A stretch of DNA of 47,611 nt from Escherichia phage vB_EcoS_swi2. Positions within the stretch are counted from its first letter, which is position 1. Each line of letters begins with the position of its first letter. A model generated the notes under the pieces. It saw only the letters and a list, made by a program, of their open reading frames with translations. It ran no database searches and had not been told where the DNA came from. The stretch is from the sequence record NC_054649.1; one strand, 5' to 3'. A program made the translations under genes and the position numbers. Of the stretch, positions 10,398-35,538 are shown piece after piece.

Positions 10398-10712
10398 ATG
10401 ATTAATAAGAAAATTATTATTTGTGGTTTGTCAGCGGTATTTCTGATTGGCGCAATGCAGGTAGCTGTCATGCTTGGGTTTATGAAGCCTCTATTCATGT
10501 TCAGTTATAGCGGAGCAATACAGAGCGTATCACTGTTATTTGTTATTGGTTTAGTTATTTTTGTGTACCTTTTGCCTGCATTTGTGGCGCTACAACGCAA
10601 GCATGTAAACACAACAGCAATTTGCGTGCTGAATATTTTTGCTGGCTGGTGTTTCTTTGGTTGGGTGGCTGCACTGGTTTGGGCTTTGGTTAAAAGTGGC
10701 GACAAGAAATGA
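10398..10712 (+). CDS. Small integral membrane protein (accessory gene; candidate superinfection-exclusion type protein)
   Basis: 104 aa with several long hydrophobic segments; own promoter; plus strand inside minus-strand tail cluster. Confidence 0.5.
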   Translation: MINKKIIICGLSAVFLIGAMQVAVMLGFMKPLFMFSYSGAIQSVSLLFVIGLVIFVYLLPAFVALQRKHVNTTAICVLNIFAGWCFFGWVAALVWALVKSGDKK

Positions 10713-14427: not shown

Positions 14428-14846
14428 TTACTCCCACGCACAACCGCAAACCACGGTTTACCGCTTCCATCAGGGTCTTCCACCAAATCGCCAGTGCATC
14501 CGGCTGTATCCAGTAGCTTCATCTGATTGTACAGCGCCACCCACGGCTTACTGCCATACGCGAATGATTGTGATGCGCCAGACGGTGCGCTCTGACTGGT
14601 AACGTAGCGACCAGCGGTATTTGCGCTAATCAGAATGGAAGCCCACAGCATGATCGCATTTTGTCGGCATTCATCGTTTGGATAGTTCAGCTCAAGGCAT
14701 TCACTGATTGATGCCACAAGACACAGAATGCCAGACGCATCCGTTGTGGTGATAGTCATCCCGCGCGATGCCATCTGACTAACCAGTTCTTCAGGTGTTG
14801 GTGCTGTCATTTCTCTTTGACTCCCGGACTTTCCACCACATTTCAA
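14418..14846 (-). CDS. Hypothetical structural protein
   Basis: 142 aa ORF in neck cluster. Confidence 0.35.
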   Translation of the reverse strand: MKCGGKSGSQREMTAPTPEELVSQMASRGMTITTTDASGILCLVASISECLELNYPNDECRQNAIMLWASILISANTAGRYVTSQSAPSGASQSFAYGSKPWVALYNQMKLLDTAGCTGDLVEDPDGSGKPWFAVVRGSKCK

Positions 14847-15075
14847 ACAGATTCTTTATTACCAGAGACAGAGCGCCGAGGATTGACGCTACTGCCGCCC
14901 ACTCCGTCAGGCTGTGTGGAATCATAGCCTCAAAATAAGACTGCGTGACAGGCGTTTGCTCTGCAACTTTCAGGCCAATGCCAGTACCAATAGAGGCATA
15001 TCCAGCCTTGTCAATCACCTGTCCTGTCGTTCCGCTTATAATCTGCTCTGCGACTTGCCTTAGTGCTCCGTTCAT
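14791..15075 (-). CDS. Hypothetical protein
   Basis: 94 aa ORF in neck cluster. Confidence 0.3.
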   Translation of the reverse strand: MNGALRQVAEQIISGTTGQVIDKAGYASIGTGIGLKVAEQTPVTQSYFEAMIPHSLTEWAAVASILGALSLVIKNLFEMWWKVRESKRNDSTNT

Positions 15076-15107: not shown

Positions 15108-15548
15108 TTATAGATTTGAATCAGCGAAAAAACAATGGCGACCACGCCAAGAATAATGTCCAATTTCGCCGCCCCATTTAAAAGTGATGGAAAGGATGAA
15201 CAGATGGGTGCCGATAATAATAAATGCGTACTGCGCATGAAGCGGCGTTTCTACAGGCGTGATAAATTCCCATACGAATGACTCTATCGCTACCAGCCAT
15301 TCGTAAAGGCTCATCGTCAGCACGCAGAGAGCCATCTTTGTACTTTTGCGCAGTGCAATAGCCTGGAACAACCAGACCATAGACTGCGCAAGGTAATACA
15401 GATATTCGGCGGGAAATGAATCAACAAGCACCCATCCAAGATACACAGACATCACCATTGCCGGAATGAACACCAGAAACGCAACCATGCCCGTACAGGC
15501 GAAACCCAGCACATACATGATCATGATGGCAACGTCTGCGCCGAACAT
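15108..15548 (-). CDS. Integral membrane protein
   Basis: 146 aa with multiple hydrophobic helices. Confidence 0.4.
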   Translation of the reverse strand: MFGADVAIMIMYVLGFACTGMVAFLVFIPAMVMSVYLGWVLVDSFPAEYLYYLAQSMVWLFQAIALRKSTKMALCVLTMSLYEWLVAIESFVWEFITPVETPLHAQYAFIIIGTHLFILSITFKWGGEIGHYSWRGRHCFFADSNL

Positions 15549-19190: not shown

Positions 19191-19216
19191 AAAGGGGCTT
19201 TCGCCCCTTTTTTTAT
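19191..19216. terminator. Hairpin immediately downstream of major capsid gene
   Basis: ggggc tttc gcccc with 7-T run on plus strand; weaker T-tract on minus strand. Confidence 0.45.
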
Positions 19217-20286
19217 TACACCGGAGTTTGCGTGCCGTAGCCGTTGAACACTTTGGACTTGCCAGTGAAATCCTTGCGCACCTGAAGCCCCATAGCTGAC
19301 CACACGAGGAAGTTGAAGTTATCGTGCGGGTTGACACGGGCTGCCGCATAGGTGGAAACAGGCTGGGCAACGCGCGGACGGATGTACATGTCGTTGCGAA
19401 CATAGCCAACAAAGTGGTTACCAGTCAGCAGGAAGTTGGTGCCAATCTTGCCAATGCGACCGTTGCCGAACTGCGTGATGTACTGCTCAACCGTGCCGCC
19501 TTTGAATCCTGCTGCATTAGAATACGGACGCATGAAGCTACGGCGCACTGCCGGGGAGACCCACAGAGTCACCTGCTCAAATACGTTCTGCGCATCCAGA
19601 ATAGCCTGGAAATCCTGATTGAAGAAGGTCACTATTTCGTCTGGTGTTGCAGTTTGCAGGTCGATATTCAGGCCGCCAGAAGCATTCAGGTTAACCTGAA
19701 CAGTGTTCGGGTGGTTGGTGATACCGTAGCCGGTGTAAACGCCGTTCACGTTCAGAGTCTGGTCGCCAGTCAGCAGGTATTGCGCCATATCGGAACGCAG
19801 GTTAAAGGTGACGTTGGCCTGATCGTCCAGCAGTGGGTAAAAACCTTCAGACTGCATACCAAGCAGTTCGCGCCATTCGCGGCTGTAGCCAGTCTTGAAG
19901 ATTGGAATCACATCGCCAGTGTAATCGTAGCGAGTTTTATCCAAATCTTCCGGCTCCTGACCAGACAGAGTGCGAACAACCTTGCCAGCATCAGAAGCAA
20001 TGCGGCTGATTGCCACAGTCTTACCAATGTTGATGTTTGCCGCGATACCCATCAGGTCAGCCATCATGTCCTGACCGGCTTCATTGCGGAAAACGCGGGT
20101 GGTAACGTTATCCACGTCGCGCCAGTAATCTTTCGTCACCAGTGCGGTGGCGTTAACTCCATAGGTTTTCGCCAGTTCAGCTTCTGCATTGCAGAACACC
20201 TTGCGGTCGATGGTGAGATGTTTCCACTGATCAGCCACCACTGCGGAGTTGGCTACCAGGTCTTTGGTAAAAATAATCTTTTCCAT
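19216..20286 (-). CDS. Major capsid protein
   Basis: 356 aa ORF in scaffold-decoration-capsid order; hairpin immediately downstream. Confidence 0.6.
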   Translation of the reverse strand: MEKIIFTKDLVANSAVVADQWKHLTIDRKVFCNAEAELAKTYGVNATALVTKDYWRDVDNVTTRVFRNEAGQDMMADLMGIAANINIGKTVAISRIASDAGKVVRTLSGQEPEDLDKTRYDYTGDVIPIFKTGYSREWRELLGMQSEGFYPLLDDQANVTFNLRSDMAQYLLTGDQTLNVNGVYTGYGITNHPNTVQVNLNASGGLNIDLQTATPDEIVTFFNQDFQAILDAQNVFEQVTLWVSPAVRRSFMRPYSNAAGFKGGTVEQYITQFGNGRIGKIGTNFLLTGNHFVGYVRNDMYIRPRVAQPVSTYAAARVNPHDNFNFLVWSAMGLQVRKDFTGKSKVFNGYGTQTPV

Positions 20287-20288
20287 TA

Positions 20289-22168
<1,880 letters not shown>

Positions 22169-22505
22169 GGTTAACTCTCCACGGTTAGTTTGTGGTCGAA
22201 TTATAACACAGGGAGATATAGCACCATGAGGCGGTAGCCAGCGCAAATAATGGCGAATTGGTGAGTGCGTATAGCGTGAGAAAGTAAGTGATAGGGATTA
22301 TGTTCATGGGCTACCTCCTGATTAAATGATAGCAGCCCATGATGAACAAAAGATATACGGAGTTAGTCTGAAATCACATCATCCATAAATGCAAGTGCAG
22401 CACCTGACAGGCAGAACAGAGCGCCATAGCAAATCATCTGGTACAGAGTGTCAGCCTCAAATACCCTTGCGAATGCGTAGGCTGATAATATCCAAAGCAA
22501 TGGAA

Positions 22506-25917: not shown

Positions 25918-25942
25918 ACAAGCCCCATTGCGGGGCTTTTTC
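25918..25942. terminator. Terminator hairpin
   Basis: agcccc attg cggggct followed by TTTTT. Confidence 0.6.
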
Positions 25943-26023
25943 ATCCCTTAAACTTTATCCAGCCGAACATCCTGACACCAAGCCACATAACGCCAGTTCT
26001 CAGTGATGAAACACCGCTATCCT

Positions 26024-26254
26024 TTAATGCCTGTCTGAATGGGTGGCATACAGATAGTCATGAACGGCTGCTGCTTTCTGACCAACATCACCAATAAAAG
26101 CGAACAGGTAAGGAAGCCGAGGAACACTGGCAAAATCAGTGCGAAATCCTGCTGGCACTTTTATTTCTTGATGCCTGAACTCATAGATTGGCGGCTCAAT
26201 CAGTGTCCACGTTGAGTCCTTGTTCAGCTTGACGATAAGATCGGATTTGAACAT
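26024..26254 (-). CDS. Hypothetical protein
   Basis: 76 aa ORF downstream of spanin genes. Confidence 0.4.
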   Translation of the reverse strand: MFKSDLIVKLNKDSTWTLIEPPIYEFRHQEIKVPAGFRTDFASVPRLPYLFAFIGDVGQKAAAVHDYLYATHSDRH

Positions 26255-26261
26255 TTATTTT

Positions 26262-26744
26262 TTATCTCCTTGTCAGTGATTCGTATTGCTTCTGGCATGC
26301 TAATCCCGCCTCTCTTGCTCTGTCAGCGTAATCTGCCAGTTGTCGATTTCTTTCGACAGATTCTGAGAGCAGCTGGGCAAGCAAAACTCCGGTTTCTGCG
26401 GCTGGATTGCCAATGGACTCAGCGGTGGAATATCCGACGAGTTGCTTGCGGATGTTTGCAAGTTGTTGCTGCAACCTGCCAGACTTAGCGGCAGCATTAA
26501 CAGCATCATTGCGCGCAGCATCAATCCTTTGCTGTGCGTTAGCCTGAATCTTTTGCAGTTCTGCATTGCGTCGTTGCTCCTCTTTTTCGTCTGCGGCCTT
26601 CTGTTCTGCAATTGCTTGAGCTTTGCCTTCTGCGTATCGCTGGTCGCCGTACTCTACAACCTCTCCGCGAATCCATAGCGCACCAGCAGCAACAATTATA
26701 ATAATTGCCAGTGGTTGCCAGTATTTAGCGAGAATTGACATCAT
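26262..26744 (-). CDS. i-spanin (Rz-like)
   Basis: N-terminal transmembrane segment then Ala/Gln-rich coiled-coil; downstream of endolysin and holin-like genes. Confidence 0.6.
   Translation of the reverse strand: MMSILAKYWQPLAIIIIVAAGALWIRGEVVEYGDQRYAEGKAQAIAEQKAADEKEEQRRNAELQKIQANAQQRIDAARNDAVNAAAKSGRLQQQLANIRKQLVGYSTAESIGNPAAETGVLLAQLLSESVERNRQLADYADRAREAGLACQKQYESLTRR
26300..26521 (-). CDS. o-spanin (Rz1-like) embedded in the Rz reading frame
   Basis: Alternate frame inside Rz; signal sequence MLRAMMLLMLPLSLAGC with lipobox Cys, Pro-rich mature part. Confidence 0.55.
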   Translation of the reverse strand: MLRAMMLLMLPLSLAGCSNNLQTSASNSSDIPPLSPLAIQPQKPEFCLPSCSQNLSKEIDNWQITLTEQERRD

Positions 26745-26964
26745 TGCGCAGCCTCCGGTTTTCCTTCCTCATGCCGTGCATTTTGCCGAGGATGCCAACC
26801 AGCATGATTGAGTAGCTCACCCCTTTAACCACGATTGGCGGCAGCGCTGCTTTCAGGTCGTCCGGCATCATTACCCACACATGCATCATTGCGTCAGGCC
26901 ATAGCTGCAATAGCGAACAGAATGAAATCCACGCGCCGAGCAGCCAGTTGCTTAGTTTTTTCAT
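26725..26964 (-). CDS. Holin-like small membrane protein
   Basis: 79 aa, two hydrophobic segments and charged C-terminus; ATGA overlap with endolysin stop. Confidence 0.5.
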   Translation of the reverse strand: MKKLSNWLLGAWISFCSLLQLWPDAMMHVWVMMPDDLKAALPPIVVKGVSYSIMLVGILGKMHGMRKENRRLRNDVNSR

Positions 26965-27428
26965 GCCACAACTCCGCCAGCCTCTTTGTATACCTGAATC
27001 AACTTATCCAGTTTCTGCTCATGCTGACCATATCCAGCACCGGGCAATGAAGCCCAACGTGAGCGGCATTTATGAATGGCATCAGCAATGCGGCCAGCCT
27101 CAACATCGGCGGTGGCTTTGCATTCGCGGATTAGCTGCATTGCAATAGCATCCTGCGATGCGGGGGAGAAGTCCGGTAAACGCAACTGCTTTTTGTACGC
27201 ATCATAAAATTTAGCCAGCACCTGATAGCGCCCAGCGGCAGTGGATTTGATGCCCAGCTTAGGCAGGCTAATCAGCTTGCGCGGGTGATCGGAATATTCG
27301 GTAAACAGTGAGCCACCTACAATCACATCATAGCCATGATTGTTGGTTTTCTGTCGCCCGTTATCCGTGCCCTCGCTGTACGCCAGCATATCCAGAAACG
27401 CCTTCATGTTTTTGCTAATATCCATACC
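26961..27428 (-). CDS. Endolysin, lambda R-like lytic transglycosylase
   Basis: MDISKNMKAFLDMLAYSEGTDNGRQKTNNHGYDVIVGG...AGRYQ closely matches lambda R along full length; start at internal Met of track ORF. Confidence 0.9.
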   Translation of the reverse strand, partial: GMDISKNMKAFLDMLAYSEGTDNGRQKTNNHGYDVIVGGSLFTEYSDHPRKLISLPKLGIKSTAAGRYQVLAKFYDAYKKQLRLPDFSPASQDAIAMQLIRECKATADVEAGRIADAIHKCRSRWASLPGAGYGQHEQKLDKLIQVYKEAGGVVA

Positions 27429-27693
27429 AGTAAACCTCTTTTTCAGCTTTACGTTTTGCCTTGTCGCCAGTCTTCTCGCCCCACAAGATGAAATGAGCAA
27501 CGGCACACGAGAAGCAGCGTAGATTGTGCTTCTTCAGAAGCGTTGATTTGCGGAAAGTGTCAATGCCGATGTCGGTGGCGAGGCTTGTCAGGGCATCAAA
27601 CTGATTCTGCGTTGTCTCGGCGGTGATGTAAGGCGATATATCCACGGCATCGGTGACATCAAGCGCCTCCATGCCGCGTTGCGATAGTTCCAT
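27415..27693 (-). CDS. Hypothetical soluble protein at head of lysis operon
   Basis: 92 aa ORF with AGGAGG RBS 5 nt before ATG; no transmembrane segment. Confidence 0.45.
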   Translation of the reverse strand: MELSQRGMEALDVTDAVDISPYITAETTQNQFDALTSLATDIGIDTFRKSTLLKKHNLRCFSCAVAHFILWGEKTGDKAKRKAEKEVYWYGY

Positions 27694-27736
27694 TCTGCCT
27701 CCTGTTCAAATAATGATTAATTCTATCACAACGACT

Positions 27737-27765
27737 ATTGACGTAGATTGAGTGGTGGTGCATAG
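27737..27765 (+). promoter_or_regulatory. Sigma70-type promoter TTGACG-N17-CATAGT
   Basis: TTGACGTAGATT followed 11 nt later by CATAGT; same architecture as 15714..15742. Confidence 0.5.
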
Positions 27766-27798
27766 TATCTACATCAAATGGTGAGTGAGGTGGTGGAT

Positions 27799-28077
27799 AT
27801 GTGTGATTGCATGAACAAAATGGAAGAGTTACTGAAGGAAAGATTGATGGAGCGCGTGCCAAGCGGTTCGGAGGTGAGTTCTAATGTTTTTGACAAAACT
27901 GGTTGGGATAATCAATTCATTAGCCTTTCGTCAGGAAAGGTTTTTGTGATGCTCAAATACAGGCTAGCATACAGGGCAAGAAAGAAAAACGGAGAACTGG
28001 CTAAAAACTTAACAAGATTGGAGTCTAACGTAAAAATGTCATACTGCCCATTTTGTGGCGAGAAGCAGGTGGATTAA
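27799..28077 (+). CDS. Zinc-ribbon hypothetical protein
   Basis: CDC near N-terminus and CPFCG near C-terminus; GAGGTGGTGG RBS. Confidence 0.4.
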   Translation: MCDCMNKMEELLKERLMERVPSGSEVSSNVFDKTGWDNQFISLSSGKVFVMLKYRLAYRARKKNGELAKNLTRLESNVKMSYCPFCGEKQVD

Positions 28078-28079
28078 AC

Positions 28080-28223
28080 ATGGTAATGGTCAAATTCAAA
28101 GAAAACGGACGCTGCGGAGTATTCGGTCTTAAGCAAATCAAAATCCGTCCGTGCGGCAAGGTGATCGCGCCATTTGGTCTTGTGCAGATGCGTGAAGTTG
28201 AGATTGTTGAATATATCAAGTGA
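28080..28223 (+). CDS. Small hypothetical protein
   Basis: 47 aa ORF not in track, fills gap between flanking genes. Confidence 0.3.
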   Translation: MVMVKFKENGRCGVFGLKQIKIRPCGKVIAPFGLVQMREVEIVEYIK

Positions 28224-28231
28224 GGTTGGTG

Positions 28232-28525
28232 ATGGAAGAATTTAAAGGCACGCATGGCCCGTGGAATTACTGTGCTGATGAGCCGGATTGGGTTACAGAT
28301 AGCAATGACAATATAGCGGTAGCAAGGGTCACTCGTTACAACGCGGATGCGGAAGCTCAACATGCAAACGCAAAGCTGATAGCAGCATCTCCTGACCTGC
28401 TCTCAGCACTCCAGCAACTACTGGAAATCTACGACGATAACTCCGGAAAAGTCTGGACAACATCAAGCAAGCGTCGCGCTCTGGATAATGCGCGCGAGGC
28501 GGTTAATAAAGCGTTGGGAGAATAA
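28232..28525 (+). CDS. Hypothetical protein, paralog of 15785..16093
   Basis: Shared EFKGT-G-W and IAA-P-LL-AL-QL motifs. Confidence 0.5.
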   Translation: MEEFKGTHGPWNYCADEPDWVTDSNDNIAVARVTRYNADAEAQHANAKLIAASPDLLSALQQLLEIYDDNSGKVWTTSSKRRALDNAREAVNKALGE

Positions 28526-28748
28526 TTATGTGGCTTGTATTTAATATTGGATGAATCGAATGCGGTGTTTCATCAAATGTTGTTGCTGTTTATCCAACTG
28601 AACAGGAGGCTAATGCGGTGGCTAAAAAACTGAATGAGGTTCACTCATGGCGAGAAGGAGGCCAAAACTCGTATGAGGTATTTAAGCTGGGTGATCTGTA
28701 CGAGGTTGAGGGTGAATATAAAGAAATACTTTCTGATGGAGAAACAAA

Positions 28749-29399
28749 ATGAAACTTATTGACCTGTTAGTTAAAGAATTGCCTAAGCGTGGTGGGTGGC
28801 CTCAAAACTCGCTGTCAATTACTCAAGATAATGACGGTTCACTGTGCGTATGGGACACGAATGACCCACACTACGAAGGGTTCTCATGGAAACACCACAC
28901 TGGCAATAGTCTTATGCATTTCTGGTGCGAAGAAGCGGCCATGCCATTATCTTCCGACCACAAGGAGTCAATAGTAACCTACTGGCAATACAAAGCAGCA
29001 CTCGCCGCATCGCAAAAGCCAACATGGGACGGCGAAGGTCTTCCGCCAGTTGGTGCAAAAGTAGAATTCTTCATTAATCCAAAGTTCGGATACCGCAATG
29101 CCTGGATTCCTGATGCTGGCACTGAAATGGAAGTTGTAGCGCACAAAACAACAACTGACGGGAACGATGTTGCTGTTTGCTATTGGGATGATGGTGGCGC
29201 TGGTCGGTCATGCTGCTTCATACCGGAAAGCCTAAAACCACTACGCACAGAAGCAGAAAGGAGGCGCGACGCATTTATAAATGCAGTTCTTGATGGTATG
29301 CGCGTAATCCCTTGTGATTTGTCGTTGCGTGATGAGGTTGCTGTTATTTACGACGCCATCGCAGCAGGAAAAATTCCCGGCGTGAAACTGGATGATTAA
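28749..29399 (+). CDS. Hypothetical protein
   Basis: 216 aa ORF followed by terminator. Confidence 0.45.
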   Translation: MKLIDLLVKELPKRGGWPQNSLSITQDNDGSLCVWDTNDPHYEGFSWKHHTGNSLMHFWCEEAAMPLSSDHKESIVTYWQYKAALAASQKPTWDGEGLPPVGAKVEFFINPKFGYRNAWIPDAGTEMEVVAHKTTTDGNDVAVCYWDDGGAGRSCCFIPESLKPLRTEAERRRDAFINAVLDGMRVIPCDLSLRDEVAVIYDAIAAGKIPGVKLDD

Positions 29400-29477
29400 A
29401 ACAATATTCAGCGTCGTAGAGATATTGTGCTATGCGATAATAATATTTGTTCTGTGCATGCTGATAAGATAAAGCAA

Positions 29478-29503
29478 AGCCCTCACTTAGAGGGCTTTTT
29501 GTT
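29478..29503. terminator. Bidirectional terminator hairpin
   Basis: agccctc actta gagggct followed by TTTTT. Confidence 0.55.
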
Positions 29504-30439
29504 TGCTGATTGCCACGCTTCTCGCTGCTTATCAAGCCTTTCCTGCGACGATTCCAGAATAACTGGCTTGCCATCCATTAATAACGCAGGGGTTTGTGCA
29601 CAATGGCAATTATATCTATTGCCATTCTCGCTATAAAACGTGTCAATCTCTTCTGGCGTGTAAAACCGTCCGTGACGAGCGGCGTGCGTCTGGCGAGTTG
29701 TACGCATTAATGCAGACTGCCACAGCATCACCGTCTCAATGCCTAATTCTTCGCGCGCCTCAATGACCTCTCGCCTGTTTGCCTGCCGAAGTGTTCCGGT
29801 GATTTCTGTCTGCGCAATCTGTTTTGCGTAGCTGTGGGAAACGTCAACTCGCTTAACAATGTCAGCTTCAACATCGCGAGGATTAGCGCCACGGGCAATG
29901 CCTTCCATAATGACAGACGCCAGTTGCTGACGGGAATAATCACTCAATCCGCGCCAGTCTGAGTAACCTTGCGTATAAGCCAGTTGCAGTCGATTCAGAT
30001 AAGGCTCACTGTAGAGTATCGCGGAAATCGGCCTTTGCTCGGCGTAAACCGGAGACAGGCTTGACAGTTCAGAGTTGGCCTTCTGCGTGCCTGCTTGATA
30101 CGCATCACCGATGAATACATTGGCCCACATCCTGCCGTGATCAAGATCATCACCTTCAAGAAGAATCTCGTCAATAAGTGCCTGCAACTCATCCATGAAA
30201 GTGGCAGCCCGCGCACTGCTGAAATCGTAGAAATACAGACCGCTTGATTCTGCGTTGGTCTGACCGTTCGGAATGGTGCGAAACAGCTCAAGTGCACGAG
30301 TCCTGAGCTGTTTGTATTTGCGCGTTATCACCTTATCCATCTTCGACAGGCGGGTTGCAGCGCCTAACGGGTCGGTCAGACTCTGCGATATGCGCGGTTG
30401 TGGTAGTCTTGCGTTAAACCGGAGTATCTTCATTTTCAT
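29483..30439 (-). CDS. Putative head morphogenesis protein
   Basis: Immediately downstream of portal gene and overlapping its 3-prime end; start at MKMK. Confidence 0.45.
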
Positions 30440-31826
30440 CTTCCGGCGGTGTGTCTTCGCGATAGCTTTCGTCAAGTTCAATCGGCTCCATACCAACCAT
30501 TCCGCGAGCCTCATCGACAGTCAGCAACGCAGATTGACCAGCATCAAAGAACGACTTGTTCGCAGTGGCGAGCTTGGACAGCAACTCCGCTTTATCCAGT
30601 TCTGAAGGCGCAAGCAGGTCATCCCACTTAACCTTGTAGCCATTTGCCGGGGCTTTATCGACAACACCAAACTGAATCATGCGCTCAACGAACATTGAGA
30701 TGACATAATCAACCCATGTTTCGCGGCGCTGCTTGGCTGTCATTGCCTCCTGCATCTTGTCTTCATCGCTCGCAAGGCGTCCGGTTTGCTGGCCAAAAAT
30801 GACGGTGAACGGAAGCGCCATTGATGCAGCGAACTGGTTGGCAGCAACTTCCCATGTGGGTTTTGGGTCGGCTGGCGTTACAGCAAGAACCTTAGCATCA
30901 GCCCCCATTGTGAACATAGCTGCGTCAATCCCGGAGTTCAGTGCCTCAATGTTCTCATTCATGATGTCGGTGAGTTCTTCGATATCGACACCCATTGACT
31001 GCGCAAGGCTTGCTGGTGTTACGTTATCCTTCGTGTAGTTTACCGCCAGTTGACGGCTGGCATTCTTCAGGAACCCTTCCGCTGAGCTACCGGAAACCTT
31101 AGCCATGTCGATAAGGCTATTGTAACCAGCGCGCAGCATTGGGATACCACTGAACATGCTGCCGTCAAAACTACCCTCAGCCAGAATGATGATGCGGTCA
31201 GGATGAATCTGCACTGAACGATCAGGCTTACCGTCGCTGTCGAAGTCTTCCACGGCGCTTTCCTGATATTCGTACATCTCAGGCATTCCGTAGTCTTCGC
31301 TGGTTTCATCGTTATTCCACGCACTGACTCGTAGTTGCTCCTCCCACACAGGAATAAAGCGAACGATGGATTTATCTTTAATACGTCTGGTTTTGGTGAT
31401 GTCAACAGGCTCGCTCCACTGGCGACCATCGCGGATTTGCAGGATAACGGCGGAATAGCGGTTGATGGCGTTACGCTTGTCAGCCTCCTTGATAAACGGA
31501 TAGGCTCGCTTCATCATGTCGTTGATGGACAATTCCCACGGCGTTGAATTCTTGTCATCCTCGCCATCTTCGACAACTTCAGGGTATTTCTGCCAGCATT
31601 TATTAATAATACGGTTAATGCCAGCGGCTGCGGCTGGGTGTCGCTCATAGGCGTAGCGGAACATCTCGGCGGTGATCTCCTGCGGGTAGCCGCATTCCGT
31701 CCAGAGTCTGTCGTGCTTCTGGTCGAGATTCTTCCCACCAGCACAAAGCCGTTGCTGCTGAAGCGCCCGGTTATTGTTCGCCACGCGGTCGCGTATATAG
31801 GCGTTTAATGCATCAATTTTGGACAT
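30414..31826 (-). CDS. Portal protein
   Basis: 470 aa ORF, acidic C-terminus, position between terminase and head morphogenesis genes. Confidence 0.55.
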
Positions 31827-34091: not shown

Positions 34092-34117
34092 GCCCTCGAA
34101 TGAGGGCTTTATTTTAT
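34090..34117. terminator. Bidirectional terminator hairpin
   Basis: agccctc gaat gagggct followed by TTTATTTTAT. Confidence 0.55.
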
Positions 34118-35538
34118 CGCCTGCGCCGGATTAGCATTCCACTACCGCGCTGAACTATATGGTCATTAAGTGCGTAACGAACCGCGTCCCAATAGTGGTT
34201 GTATGCATCAACAATATCAGTCAGCACATTCCCTGTCAGCTTATCAACTTTGTAGCTGTACATTACCGCCTCATTCTGCATCTCCTTGCATCGCTCATGA
34301 ATGATGATGCTGTCACAGCCACGCAGCCACGTTACACCATCCTCAACGCTTCCCGGCCATTTCGTGCACGGGTGGATATCGAATCCAGAACGCTTGATGT
34401 GACTGATGGTTTCAGGTCGAGCGCAGTCGGCATACCATCGTGCGCGCTTAGCCATCGGGAATGATTGCTCCATCGCAGCCGGTGTATCGGTAATCTCAAG
34501 CCCCACCTTGCCGTACTCGCGATTAATATAAATGTTGCGCCGCCCACCTGGTAACTCCTCGATGTAAACCTCAACCATCGCGGTAGGGTCCGTGCTGAAT
34601 CCGAAGTCCATCCCGAAATATGGGCCATGCCATTCAGGTTTGACCTCGAAGTTATCAATTCGCCACTTGCCGCCGAAGACCTGTTCGTCGCTACGCTTGT
34701 TGAACTTGCCTTCCCATATCCACATGTAGCGGTCGAAATCGACGCGCTTCATTTGCTCCATAGCGGATGGCAACGGCGTATCCCAGAACCACGGGTTGTC
34801 TGAATAGTTACATTCGATAATCAGAATTTCATCATTTTCGAAGATGCCATCAACCATCTGTGAGTGATAGGGGGCAATCCAGTTTTTCCATGTGGGGTCT
34901 GTTTCCTTGTTTGGGTTGAATGAGCACCACAGTTCGGAATTGGCAGCACGGATGGTAGGCACAAGAATATCCCAGCTTGTCTGGCTGACGTTCTCTGCTT
35001 CCTCTACCCAACCGACGGTAATCCCAGCAAAACCCTTAACTGTAGTCTGATTGCGATACAACCCCTTAAAGCGAAATTTGGCCTTAGTCTTTTTGTGTGT
35101 TATCTCGTTGTTGATAACGCGAAACTCTGCCGATTCACCCTTGCGGGCTATCTCATCAACAAGCTCCTGATAGCTTGAGTCTTCAATGGATTGCTGAATC
35201 TCACGAAAACAGGCAAAGCGGTCAGGGCGAAACCTTGCGCGCTCAGTGAGTATAGTGATAATCGTTCTTGTCTTGCCTGACCCGCGGCCACCGTAGATAA
35301 ACTTGAATCGTTTTGGGTAAAGCAGGCGCTCCAGTTTTGCGGGAATCAGGTGGTCAGCATGAGTGGTTGCATTTGTCACGTCATCAACGCCAGTGGCGGT
35401 CATCCTTAGCCGTTTGATGACGTTTTTCTGTATGTCGCAGATGCCAAAAATGGCTGACTCGGCGACATCTGTCATTTCATCATCAATCTGCGCTTCCAGC
35501 TTTTCGATTGCCAGCGCGGAGAGGCGTTTACGAGCCAT
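34114..35538 (-). CDS. Terminase large subunit
   Basis: Walker A YGGRGSGKT near N-terminus, 474 aa, position upstream of portal. Confidence 0.85.
   Translation of the reverse strand: MARKRLSALAIEKLEAQIDDEMTDVAESAIFGICDIQKNVIKRLRMTATGVDDVTNATTHADHLIPAKLERLLYPKRFKFIYGGRGSGKTRTIITILTERARFRPDRFACFREIQQSIEDSSYQELVDEIARKGESAEFRVINNEITHKKTKAKFRFKGLYRNQTTVKGFAGITVGWVEEAENVSQTSWDILVPTIRAANSELWCSFNPNKETDPTWKNWIAPYHSQMVDGIFENDEILIIECNYSDNPWFWDTPLPSAMEQMKRVDFDRYMWIWEGKFNKRSDEQVFGGKWRIDNFEVKPEWHGPYFGMDFGFSTDPTAMVEVYIEELPGGRRNIYINREYGKVGLEITDTPAAMEQSFPMAKRARWYADCARPETISHIKRSGFDIHPCTKWPGSVEDGVTWLRGCDSIIIHERCKEMQNEAVMYSYKVDKLTGNVLTDIVDAYNHYWDAVRYALNDHIVQRGSGMLIRRRR

Follow-up and report, generated by a model that had tools for sequence, protein, structure and literature searches.

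A lysozyme-derived protein predicted to lack its catalytic lobe leads the lysis cassette of Skatevirus-type siphophages

Phage lambda encodes its lysis proteins in the S-R-Rz/Rz1 cassette, in which the gene for the three-helix holin S105 precedes that for the endolysin and the Rz1 gene is embedded in Rz, the classic arrangement of these two genes. A lysis cassette on the minus strand of Escherichia phage vB_EcoS_swi2 (NC_054649.1; the whole stretch of 47,611 nucleotides that was analyzed is referred to as the window) resembles that of lambda in its R-type transglycosylase gene, its Rz1 gene lying within Rz at +1 and its tightly overlapping genes. It differs in that a predicted two-helix holin of the DUF7940 family follows the endolysin, no dual-start motif is present, Rz belongs to the DUF2514 family, and an extra gene stands first. 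This extra gene, here called orf92, appears from sequence and a predicted fold to encode a GH24 (T4/P22-type) lysozyme that has been cut down to its C-terminal lobe and has lost the catalytic lobe.

The gp60-63 region of phage N4 also includes a holin of the DUF7940 family, gp62. Both termini of this two-helix protein lie in the cytoplasm. It forms large holes, kills cells upon membrane depolarisation, and releases a signal-arrest-release (SAR) endolysin and, in lambda lysogens lacking S, the soluble lambda R (bioRxiv 10.1101/2025.11.12.688109). The N4 genes are ordered pinholin, holin, endolysin and spanin. N4 combines a SAR endolysin with a dominant pinholin, gp63, whereas the endolysin of the window is predicted to be soluble, and no lysozyme-lobe gene is annotated in the N4 region.

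Polypeptides derived from lysozymes or endolysins can have roles other than catalysis. T7 lysozyme has a regulatory role, and the Gram-positive phage endolysins CTP1L, Lys170 and Ms6 LysA give rise to non-catalytic secondary products. As would be the case for orf92, these products are catalysis-free, endolysin-derived polypeptides made beside an enzyme and take part in lysis. They differ from it in arising from internal starts in the same gene, in consisting of a wall-binding domain and in assembling with their own full-length enzyme; orf92 is a separate gene whose product corresponds to one half of a catalytic domain and is found beside unrelated enzymes.

The first gene of the cassette and its relation to GH24 lysozymes

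The genes of the cassette are given below; all five open reading frames (ORFs) were confirmed.

27693 to 26262, minus strand: lysis cassette of five tightly overlapping genes
27415-27693, minus strand: orf92, the first gene; 92 residues, soluble, with a ribosome-binding site (RBS), AGGAGG, 5 nucleotides upstream of the ATG
26961-27425, minus strand: predicted R-type endolysin, 154 residues
26725-26964, minus strand: holin candidate, 79 residues; ATGA overlap with the R stop codon
26262-26744, minus strand: Rz, 160 residues; 20-nucleotide overlap with the holin gene
26300-26521, minus strand: Rz1, wholly inside Rz in the +1 frame; 73-residue precursor

A sequence-only reading of the window had described the product of the first gene as a soluble protein with a very strong RBS and no membrane segment. 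These properties were borne out: AGGAGG is the strongest RBS of the cassette, and the hydropathy of orf92 does not exceed 0.82 (Kyte-Doolittle scale over 17 residues). That reading had left the protein anonymous and thereby missed its relationship to GH24 lysozymes. The match of orf92 to Pfam PF00959 covers only profile positions 55-114 of 125, whereas those of its intact neighbours run from 1 to 125. The protein also matches phrog_10457 (E-value 1.4e-40), a PHROG family of its own with a length of 95 residues and the label 'endolysin'. In alignments with intact GH24 enzymes, about 50-55 residues are absent from orf92, among them the TIGxGH segment and two members of the catalytic triad, Asp and Thr, and the position of the catalytic Glu is occupied by D, N or E in the short proteins and is not conserved. 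orf92 lacks the N-terminal β-hairpin lobe and does not give the full-domain PF00959 match of an active muramidase. A search of the window by tblastn with the N-lobes of the HC6 and P22 enzymes gave nothing better than an E-value of 0.9, which rules out a split lysozyme with its catalytic lobe encoded elsewhere in the window.

An AlphaFold2 model of orf92 was obtained with high confidence (predicted local distance difference test, pLDDT, of 95; predicted template modelling score, pTM, of 0.88). In a Foldseek comparison, the good matches of the model in the Protein Data Bank (PDB) were GH24 structures only, namely R21 of phage 21 (3hde), P22 lysozyme (2anv), PHAb11 (9kbs) and AbLys1; the best of them covered about 74 residues with a root-mean-square deviation of 1.6-2.3 and a template modelling score of about 0.72 normalised to the query. 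The model suggests that the fold of the C-terminal helical lobe is present in orf92. In T4 lysozyme, helix A and residues ~60-164 fold on their own, and the short protein would correspond to the same unit, the C-terminal subdomain, in agreement with the high confidence of the model. The T4 fragment was made in the laboratory, whereas orf92 is a natural gene. The GH24 domain of SpmX (6h9d) was also among the fold matches. This muramidase domain is a phage lysozyme co-opted for a non-lytic job, but SpmX retains the whole GH24 domain and orf92 only the C-lobe. It is very likely from these comparisons that orf92 is non-catalytic and that the label 'endolysin', which it bears in GenBank and PHROGs, is wrong. 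In the papers found that mention these phages, the short gene was not discussed beyond a lysozyme label.

Over residues 19-88, orf92 is 46-52% identical to intact enzymes of 144-146 residues from phages KP591P3, pIS4-A, HC6 and D10. A KHNxxCxxC motif is common to orf92 and these sister enzymes and does not occur in other GH24 enzymes, and the first seven residues, MKLSQRG, are shared by the consensus of the short family and the sister enzymes. Since the intact sister enzymes also have the CxxC and His residues, these mark the lineage and not the short form, and the idea that they are a novelty of the latter was rejected. Residues invariant across all short forms include H56, C60, C63, W71, R81, E84 and the C-terminal YxYGY. 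The YxYGY tail is retained despite changes in the gene that follows and in the overlap, for example in contig L049, which has an ATGA overlap.

orf92 is kept by purifying selection as a protein. In the allele class of the window (34 distinct sequences), the ratio of nonsynonymous to synonymous substitution rates (dN/dS) was 0.117 for orf92, compared with 0.035 for R, 0.137 for the holin gene and 0.29 for Rz, and the orf92 alignment read in the two wrong frames as controls gave 1.5 and 1.9. Within orf92 the ratio was 0.05-0.10 for residues 19-92 and 0.35 for residues 1-18. A second allele class, 52-57% identical to the first, gave 0.10 (n=9), and a third lineage, which is linked to GH108 endolysins and is 38-47% identical, gave 0.125 (n=5); conservation of the short protein in this third lineage does not extend to its N-terminal helix. 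The frame was intact and 92 residues long in 35 of 35 loci, and contigs sampled through the R gene had an intact short gene upstream and a holin gene downstream in 32 of 32 cases. Compensated frameshifts in P0029 and P0033 were not accepted as real exceptions; R and Rz are also broken in their source contig, L038, so the frameshifts are probably assembly errors. On the dN/dS values, the intactness of the frame and the fold model, the reading of orf92 as a pseudogene or relic was rejected.

Endolysin exchange around the short gene

An intact GH24 gene encoding 144-146 residues fills the first slot of the cassette in KP591P3 (Klebsiella), pIS4-A (Aeromonas, Roufvirus), HC6 (E. coli) and D10 (Salmonella), and is followed directly by the holin gene and Rz. 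Genome position, leader, the first 7 codons, and the holin and spanin families are the same as in the window. The difference is that one active muramidase fills the slot, with neither an R-type gene nor a short gene. LysZX4 of Klebsiella phage ZX4 has been found muralytic in vitro (PMC10755502), and the ZX4 enzyme was matched to the first slot of the cassette.

Comparison with these phages delimits the exchanged block. The upstream arm lies in the following feature.

27694..27777, minus strand: leader and RBS region 5' of orf92; with the first 7 codons, the upstream arm of the swappable endolysin slot

From 27777 to 27672, through the leader and codons 1-7, the window is 91-93% identical to the DNA of HC6 and D10. 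The homology ends after codon 7 and is back exactly at the holin ATG, with 88-94% identity over the holin gene and Rz. The swapped block therefore measures 707 bp in the window, where it contains the rest of orf92 and R, versus 415 bp in HC6 and D10, where it is the remainder of the intact gene. The intact sister genes were also inspected for a C-lobe product made from an internal start; no convincing RBS was found before Met47 or Met53, and such a secondary product was rejected.

Relatives in which the short gene is accompanied by other enzymes came from metagenome and assembly searches, and their layout is alike, with portal, MuF and small genes followed by the cassette. In four contigs (L049, L085, L174 and L175) the gene 3' of the short gene encodes a GH108/PG_binding_3 endolysin; a fifth, L082, has the same short allele as the GH108-type contigs and ends before the next gene. 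In L077 the short gene is followed by a full-length GH24 gene whose product has a hydrophobic, SAR-like N-terminus. A DUF7940 holin gene and a spanin pair lie 3' of the enzyme gene in each of the GH108- and SAR-GH24-type cassettes, and the spanins of L049 belong to different families. With these two cassette types beside the R type, the short gene stays in place while the enzyme that accompanies it is one of three unrelated kinds. Its length and frame are retained down to 38-55% identity.

The short alleles fall into two deep classes. Those of L035-L037, L047, L173, L176 and L177 are 52-57% identical to the allele of the window at 27415-27693 (63% for L176). Where measured, in L035-L037, the adjacent R genes are 94-97% and the holins 84-99% identical to those of the window. 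The short alleles thus make the locus a sharp mosaic, one boundary of which falls within the cassette. An extra ORF of 47-56 residues is found between the holin gene and Rz in two contigs (L036:4950-5120 and L176:3450-3593) and not in the window.

About 20 further short hits were returned by an all-protein search. Most of these start at a conserved internal Met and could for this reason come from genes cut at contig ends, and they were not accepted as many independent mini-lysozymes. Only P0106 and P0107, and perhaps P0128, are clearly members of the short family, and L127 is a frameshifted full gene. P0128 (L051:120-425), a distant member of 101 residues, matches phrog_10457 with an E-value of 1e-19, runs straight from its N-terminal helix into the C-lobe and contains no CxxC; its neighbours are unlike lysis genes, and it may be an independent instance.

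These comparisons suggest a history of the cassette in which the GH24 endolysin probably came first. The ancestral cassette would have consisted of a GH24 endolysin, a holin and a spanin. The gene of an unrelated enzyme would then have entered the cassette 3' of the lysozyme gene and 5' of the holin gene, and this enzyme would have taken over catalysis, the non-catalytic lobe being retained for a job other than cutting peptidoglycan.

Holin, endolysin, spanins and genomic setting

Family matches of four cassette genes had E-values from 1e-9 to 1e-61, far beyond chance. The 154-residue protein aligned by phmmer with lambda lysozyme (1AM7/3D3D) over residues 2-153 with an E-value of 1.6e-61, its YSEGT aligning with WSEGT, so that the catalytic glutamate of SEGT is kept; it is 65.6% identical to lambda R. 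The lambda R-like call of the sequence-only reading agrees with this, and the protein is predicted to be a soluble endolysin of the lambda R type, in the lytic transglycosylase family. Its hydropathy maximum is 0.46 over 17 residues and it has no signal or SAR segment; lacking a hydrophobic segment, it would need a large-hole holin. The start of R is the ATG at 27425 and not an upstream GTG, which gives an overlap of 11 nucleotides with the end of orf92 (ATGGATATTAG). In one metagenome contig of low coverage (2.5x), the short gene is in frame with R in a single ORF of 243 residues (L081:646-1377), probably through an assembly error of 1 nucleotide.

The 79-residue protein exceeds the curated cut-off of Pfam PF25612 (DUF7940), with 39.2 bits against 27 (E-value 1.1e-9), and matches phrog_13249, labelled 'holin' (E-value 3.3e-52). 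N4 gp62 belongs to the same Pfam family (50.4 bits), and an hhalign comparison of the holin group of the window with the gp62 group gave a probability of 98.6% and an E-value of 6.6e-16, with both helices aligned. Helix 2 (residues 39-60) is clear; helix 1 (residues ~7-23) is moderate, with a Kyte-Doolittle hydropathy of about 1.1 by hand calculation. The MKK at the N-terminus and the basic C-terminal RKENRRLRNDVNSR fit the positive-inside rule. The gene overlaps those of the endolysin and the spanin, and its position is the same in each of the four cassette types. The protein, which had been put forward from the letters alone as a two-helix holin candidate encoded 3' of the endolysin, is thereby strengthened as a predicted class II-type holin of the DUF7940/N4 gp62 family. 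In Pseudomonas phage Kaya, Xanthomonas phage Samson and Burkholderia phage BcepNazgul, distant DUF7940 members are encoded in the usual holin-first order.

No second holin, antiholin or pinholin was accepted. The window contains no homolog of N4 gp63, and none was found of the phage RSU-F4K5 protein named 'putative antiholin'; the other membrane proteins are distant and match no holin family. Two of them, which are conserved and encoded at 14791-15075 and 15108-15548 on the minus strand, match phrog_13738 ('membrane protein') and phrog_14688 ('lipoprotein') and have no Pfam match. The one with 94 residues is slightly holin-like, with one helix and a tail that is charged, but its gene is 11 kb away from the cassette.

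Rz matches PF10721 (DUF2514; E-value 4.1e-30) and phrog_312, 'Rz-like spanin' (E-value 9.6e-48), and has an N-terminal transmembrane segment at residues 1-31. Rz1 has the signal peptide MLRAMMLLMLPLSLAG|C with the lipobox LSLAG|C and a mature length of 57 residues, and matches phrog_11621, 'Rz-like spanin' (E-value 8.9e-36). Its most likely start is the ATG at 26521, with alternatives at 26509, 26506 and 26497, and its stop lies at nucleotide 445 of the 483-nucleotide Rz gene. The embedded Rz1, an L[A/V]GC lipobox, the 57-residue mature length and the same stop position are kept in 29 of 31 related loci. Rz and Rz1 are predicted to form a two-component spanin of embedded architecture, with Rz in the inner membrane and Rz1 as a lipoprotein of the outer membrane. 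The location of Rz1 wholly inside Rz in another frame had been noted before and is correct, but it is not unusual, being the lambda arrangement. The order of the five genes on the minus strand (soluble 92-residue protein, endolysin, holin, Rz with Rz1) likewise stands as first described, and the same reading had called it unusual; endolysin, holin and spanin in this order are the rule throughout the phage cluster and are already annotated in GenBank.

The window is approximately one full siphophage genome, near the Salmonella phages Vi II-E1, Skate and BS5 and the E. coli phages Bas77-81 of the BASEL collection. The region is matched by 164 GenBank phage records at 80-95% identity, in which the annotation gives two endolysins, a holin and an Rz-like spanin. 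The cluster was treated in the BASEL paper as Skatevirus and relatives, and the carriers of the cassette form the Skatevirus/Macdonaldcampvirus group. On the minus strand, the genes for terminase (34114-35538), portal (30414-31826) and MuF (29483-30514) lie 5' of the cassette, separated from it by a block of small plus-strand genes; 3' of it are more small genes, then capsid-side genes (20756-22246 and 19216-20286) and tail genes. The cassette thus splits the head genes, as the sequence-only reading had claimed, and it does so in Vi II-E1 and Bas80 as well. The small plus-strand genes at 27778-29400 are of unknown function and diverge from the cassette; the content of the block differs among relatives (HNH endonuclease, P22_Y8K6-like and DUF7448 genes), which marks it as a hot spot of gene turnover. 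A simple scan found no promoter of the sigma-70 consensus on the strand of the cassette. Two further features lie beyond Rz.

25944..26254, minus strand: DUF1353 gene 3' of Rz, frameshifted in the window (PF07087, E-value 3.2e-14)
25920..25938, minus strand: terminator-like hairpin AAGCCCCGCAATGGGGCTT, with an 8-bp stem, 5 GC pairs and a T-rich tail; a consensus match only

The strong hairpin at 25920-25938 sits just 3' of the DUF1353 gene, and the lysis transcription unit probably ends there. Residues 1-76 and 82-113 of the intact 113-residue homolog in Bas80 correspond to different frames in the window, which places a frameshift near 26030; the gene would be either a pseudogene or the site of a sequencing error. 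It is probably not a lysis gene and is missing from the corresponding place in HC6 and D10. The PHROGs name of its family, 'tail assembly chaperone', is doubtful given the position of the gene. At 10398-10712, on the plus strand and thus opposite to the cassette, a gene amid the tail genes encodes a multi-pass membrane protein of 104 residues with a superinfection immunity domain (PF14373, E-value 1.4e-15).

Possible roles of the short protein

By analogy with the described systems, the locus reads as a functional cassette with which a Skatevirus-type siphophage would carry out lysis in three steps. The 79-residue DUF7940 holin would gather in the inner membrane and open large holes, the soluble R transglycosylase would cross and cut the cell wall, and the Rz/Rz1 spanin pair would disrupt the outer membrane. 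It is likely that the locus combines such a standard cassette with a selected, non-catalytic protein derived from a lysozyme, a judgement that does not extend to any specific target. That the short protein is, overall, a functional non-catalytic protein is held with somewhat more confidence. The short protein may act as a non-enzymatic binder of a target that stays unchanged when the endolysin, the holin subtype or the spanins are swapped, and its binding would tune lysis. Since holins, enzymes and spanins all vary beside it, the target should be constant across the swaps, and the likeliest candidates would be the cell wall or cell-wall precursors, or else a different host component. The proposal that the short protein binds a host or cell-wall target is nonetheless a tentative one.

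Several points weigh against this picture. The net charge of the short proteins is -2.4 to +2.7, against +6 to +7 in catalytic C-lobes, and the conserved YN of the AYNIG motif is changed in them; both weaken the idea of cell-wall binding. The short protein has no export signal and would therefore reach the wall only after the holin fires. The short form is about 50% identical to the intact enzymes, which are 80% identical among themselves, and such faster long-term change fits either a new function or looser constraint. The combination with a SAR-GH24 enzyme was seen in one contig only, L077. In N4, gp62 is late-acting and non-essential, and lysis is driven by the pinholin gp63 (bioRxiv 10.1101/2025.11.12.688109); membership in DUF7940 is therefore no proof that the 79-residue protein alone brings about timely lysis. 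In the papers searched, there was no experimental work on the genes of the cassette, nor on the short protein of any phage.

The first gene had also been proposed to be a lysis regulator, and the short protein could in this sense control the time of lysis from the cytoplasm by binding to the DUF7940 holin, whether in the manner of an antiholin or as a holin cofactor. T4 RIII, a soluble cytoplasmic antiholin, is a precedent. orf92 is soluble, is encoded by the first gene and has the strongest RBS; a DUF7940 holin is present in every cassette found with the short gene or the intact ancestral enzyme; and with a charge close to neutral, a protein partner in the cytoplasm is a better match for it than the cell wall. 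Against this, the short protein is not tied to one holin. The class of short protein shared by L077 and L035 (73% identical) occurs beside very different holins: that of L036 is 98.6% identical to the holin of the window, and that of L077 is of the N4 gp62 type and very unlike it, as judged by eye only. Conversely, short alleles that differ by 45% lie beside nearly identical holin and R genes. N4, Kaya, Samson and BcepNazgul have no such gene annotated beside their DUF7940 holins, and orf92 is unrelated to the holin, which lacks a dual-start motif, and shows no co-variation with holin subtype. Regulation of the holin is accordingly considered an unlikely explanation, but one that should be kept in view.

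A further possibility is that the short gene is the leftover of a displaced GH24 endolysin with no function as a protein, and that it is kept for cis-acting reasons: at the 5' end as a promoter-proximal leader with a strong RBS, at the 3' end for translational coupling, and as a homology arm for endolysin swaps. The ends of the gene agree with such roles. The last 11 nucleotides overlap the start of R, and the GAGG site of R lies within the last codons of orf92; synonymous differences per site are reduced to 0.13 in codons 81-92, compared with about 0.3 elsewhere, as expected of an overlapping signal. The leader and codons 1-7 are those shared at 91-93% with the phages that carry intact enzymes, and the N-terminal 18 residues are only loosely constrained, at a dN/dS (omega) of 0.35. 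The middle of the gene argues otherwise: a dN/dS of 0.05-0.10 holds over residues 19-80, far from the overlaps, constraint is seen in three separate lineages, and 74 conserved codons are unneeded for a leader. Length and frame are retained at 38-55% identity, a confident fold is predicted, and the YxYGY tail is conserved in L049 despite a different overlap sequence. A role confined to the nucleic acid is for these reasons thought distinctly improbable.

It is more improbable still that the cassette has been mis-read, so that another membrane protein is the effective holin or a fused or frameshifted orf92-R product is needed: the small membrane proteins at 14791-15075 and 15108-15548, which with the weak and late action of gp62 in its own phage might favor the former, lie 11 kb off among structural genes and match no holin family, whereas the 79-residue gene overlaps the endolysin and spanin genes at the same place in all cassette types; and the latter, to which an R frame open for 27 codons upstream of the ATG in most relatives and the in-frame fusion in the single low-coverage contig L081 might point, was rejected, given that the R frame is +1 relative to orf92, inspection of the overlap by eye showed no slippery site, the opening is short and not shared by all relatives (L011 is an exception) and 27 stop-free codons occur by chance in ~27% of cases, and L081, at a coverage of 2.5, is probably an assembly error.

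As an annotated gene set the cassette was already known, and its mode of action would be that of the lambda paradigm, the holin being one of the N4 gp62 family. What is new, as far as found, is that half of a catalytic domain has a gene of its own, which is kept through several enzyme replacements. The preferred reading, in which the product of this gene is a selected, non-catalytic protein, has practical consequences. More than 140 GenBank phage genomes, as well as phrog_10457, label the short gene 'endolysin' or 'lysozyme'; where antibacterial enzymes are mined from these phages, the gene that follows the short gene would be the right one to clone. For module swapping, the endolysin block is bounded to the base by codons 1-7 of the first gene and the holin start codon. 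The phages Bas77-81 of the BASEL collection carry the cassette and grow on E. coli K-12.

For protein evolution, the short family would be a natural case of half a lysozyme that lasts as a stable protein. Models of lysis count holin, endolysin, spanin and antiholins, and a fifth conserved protein, which persists through three different replacements of the endolysin, hints at a step or control point that has yet to be recognised. The short protein may be a new component of lysis, a non-enzymatic accessory needed with any endolysin, whether R-type, GH108 or SAR-GH24; this is given somewhat less than even odds. If it is true, the intact GH24 endolysins of the sister phages would have a second, non-catalytic job in their C-terminal lobe.

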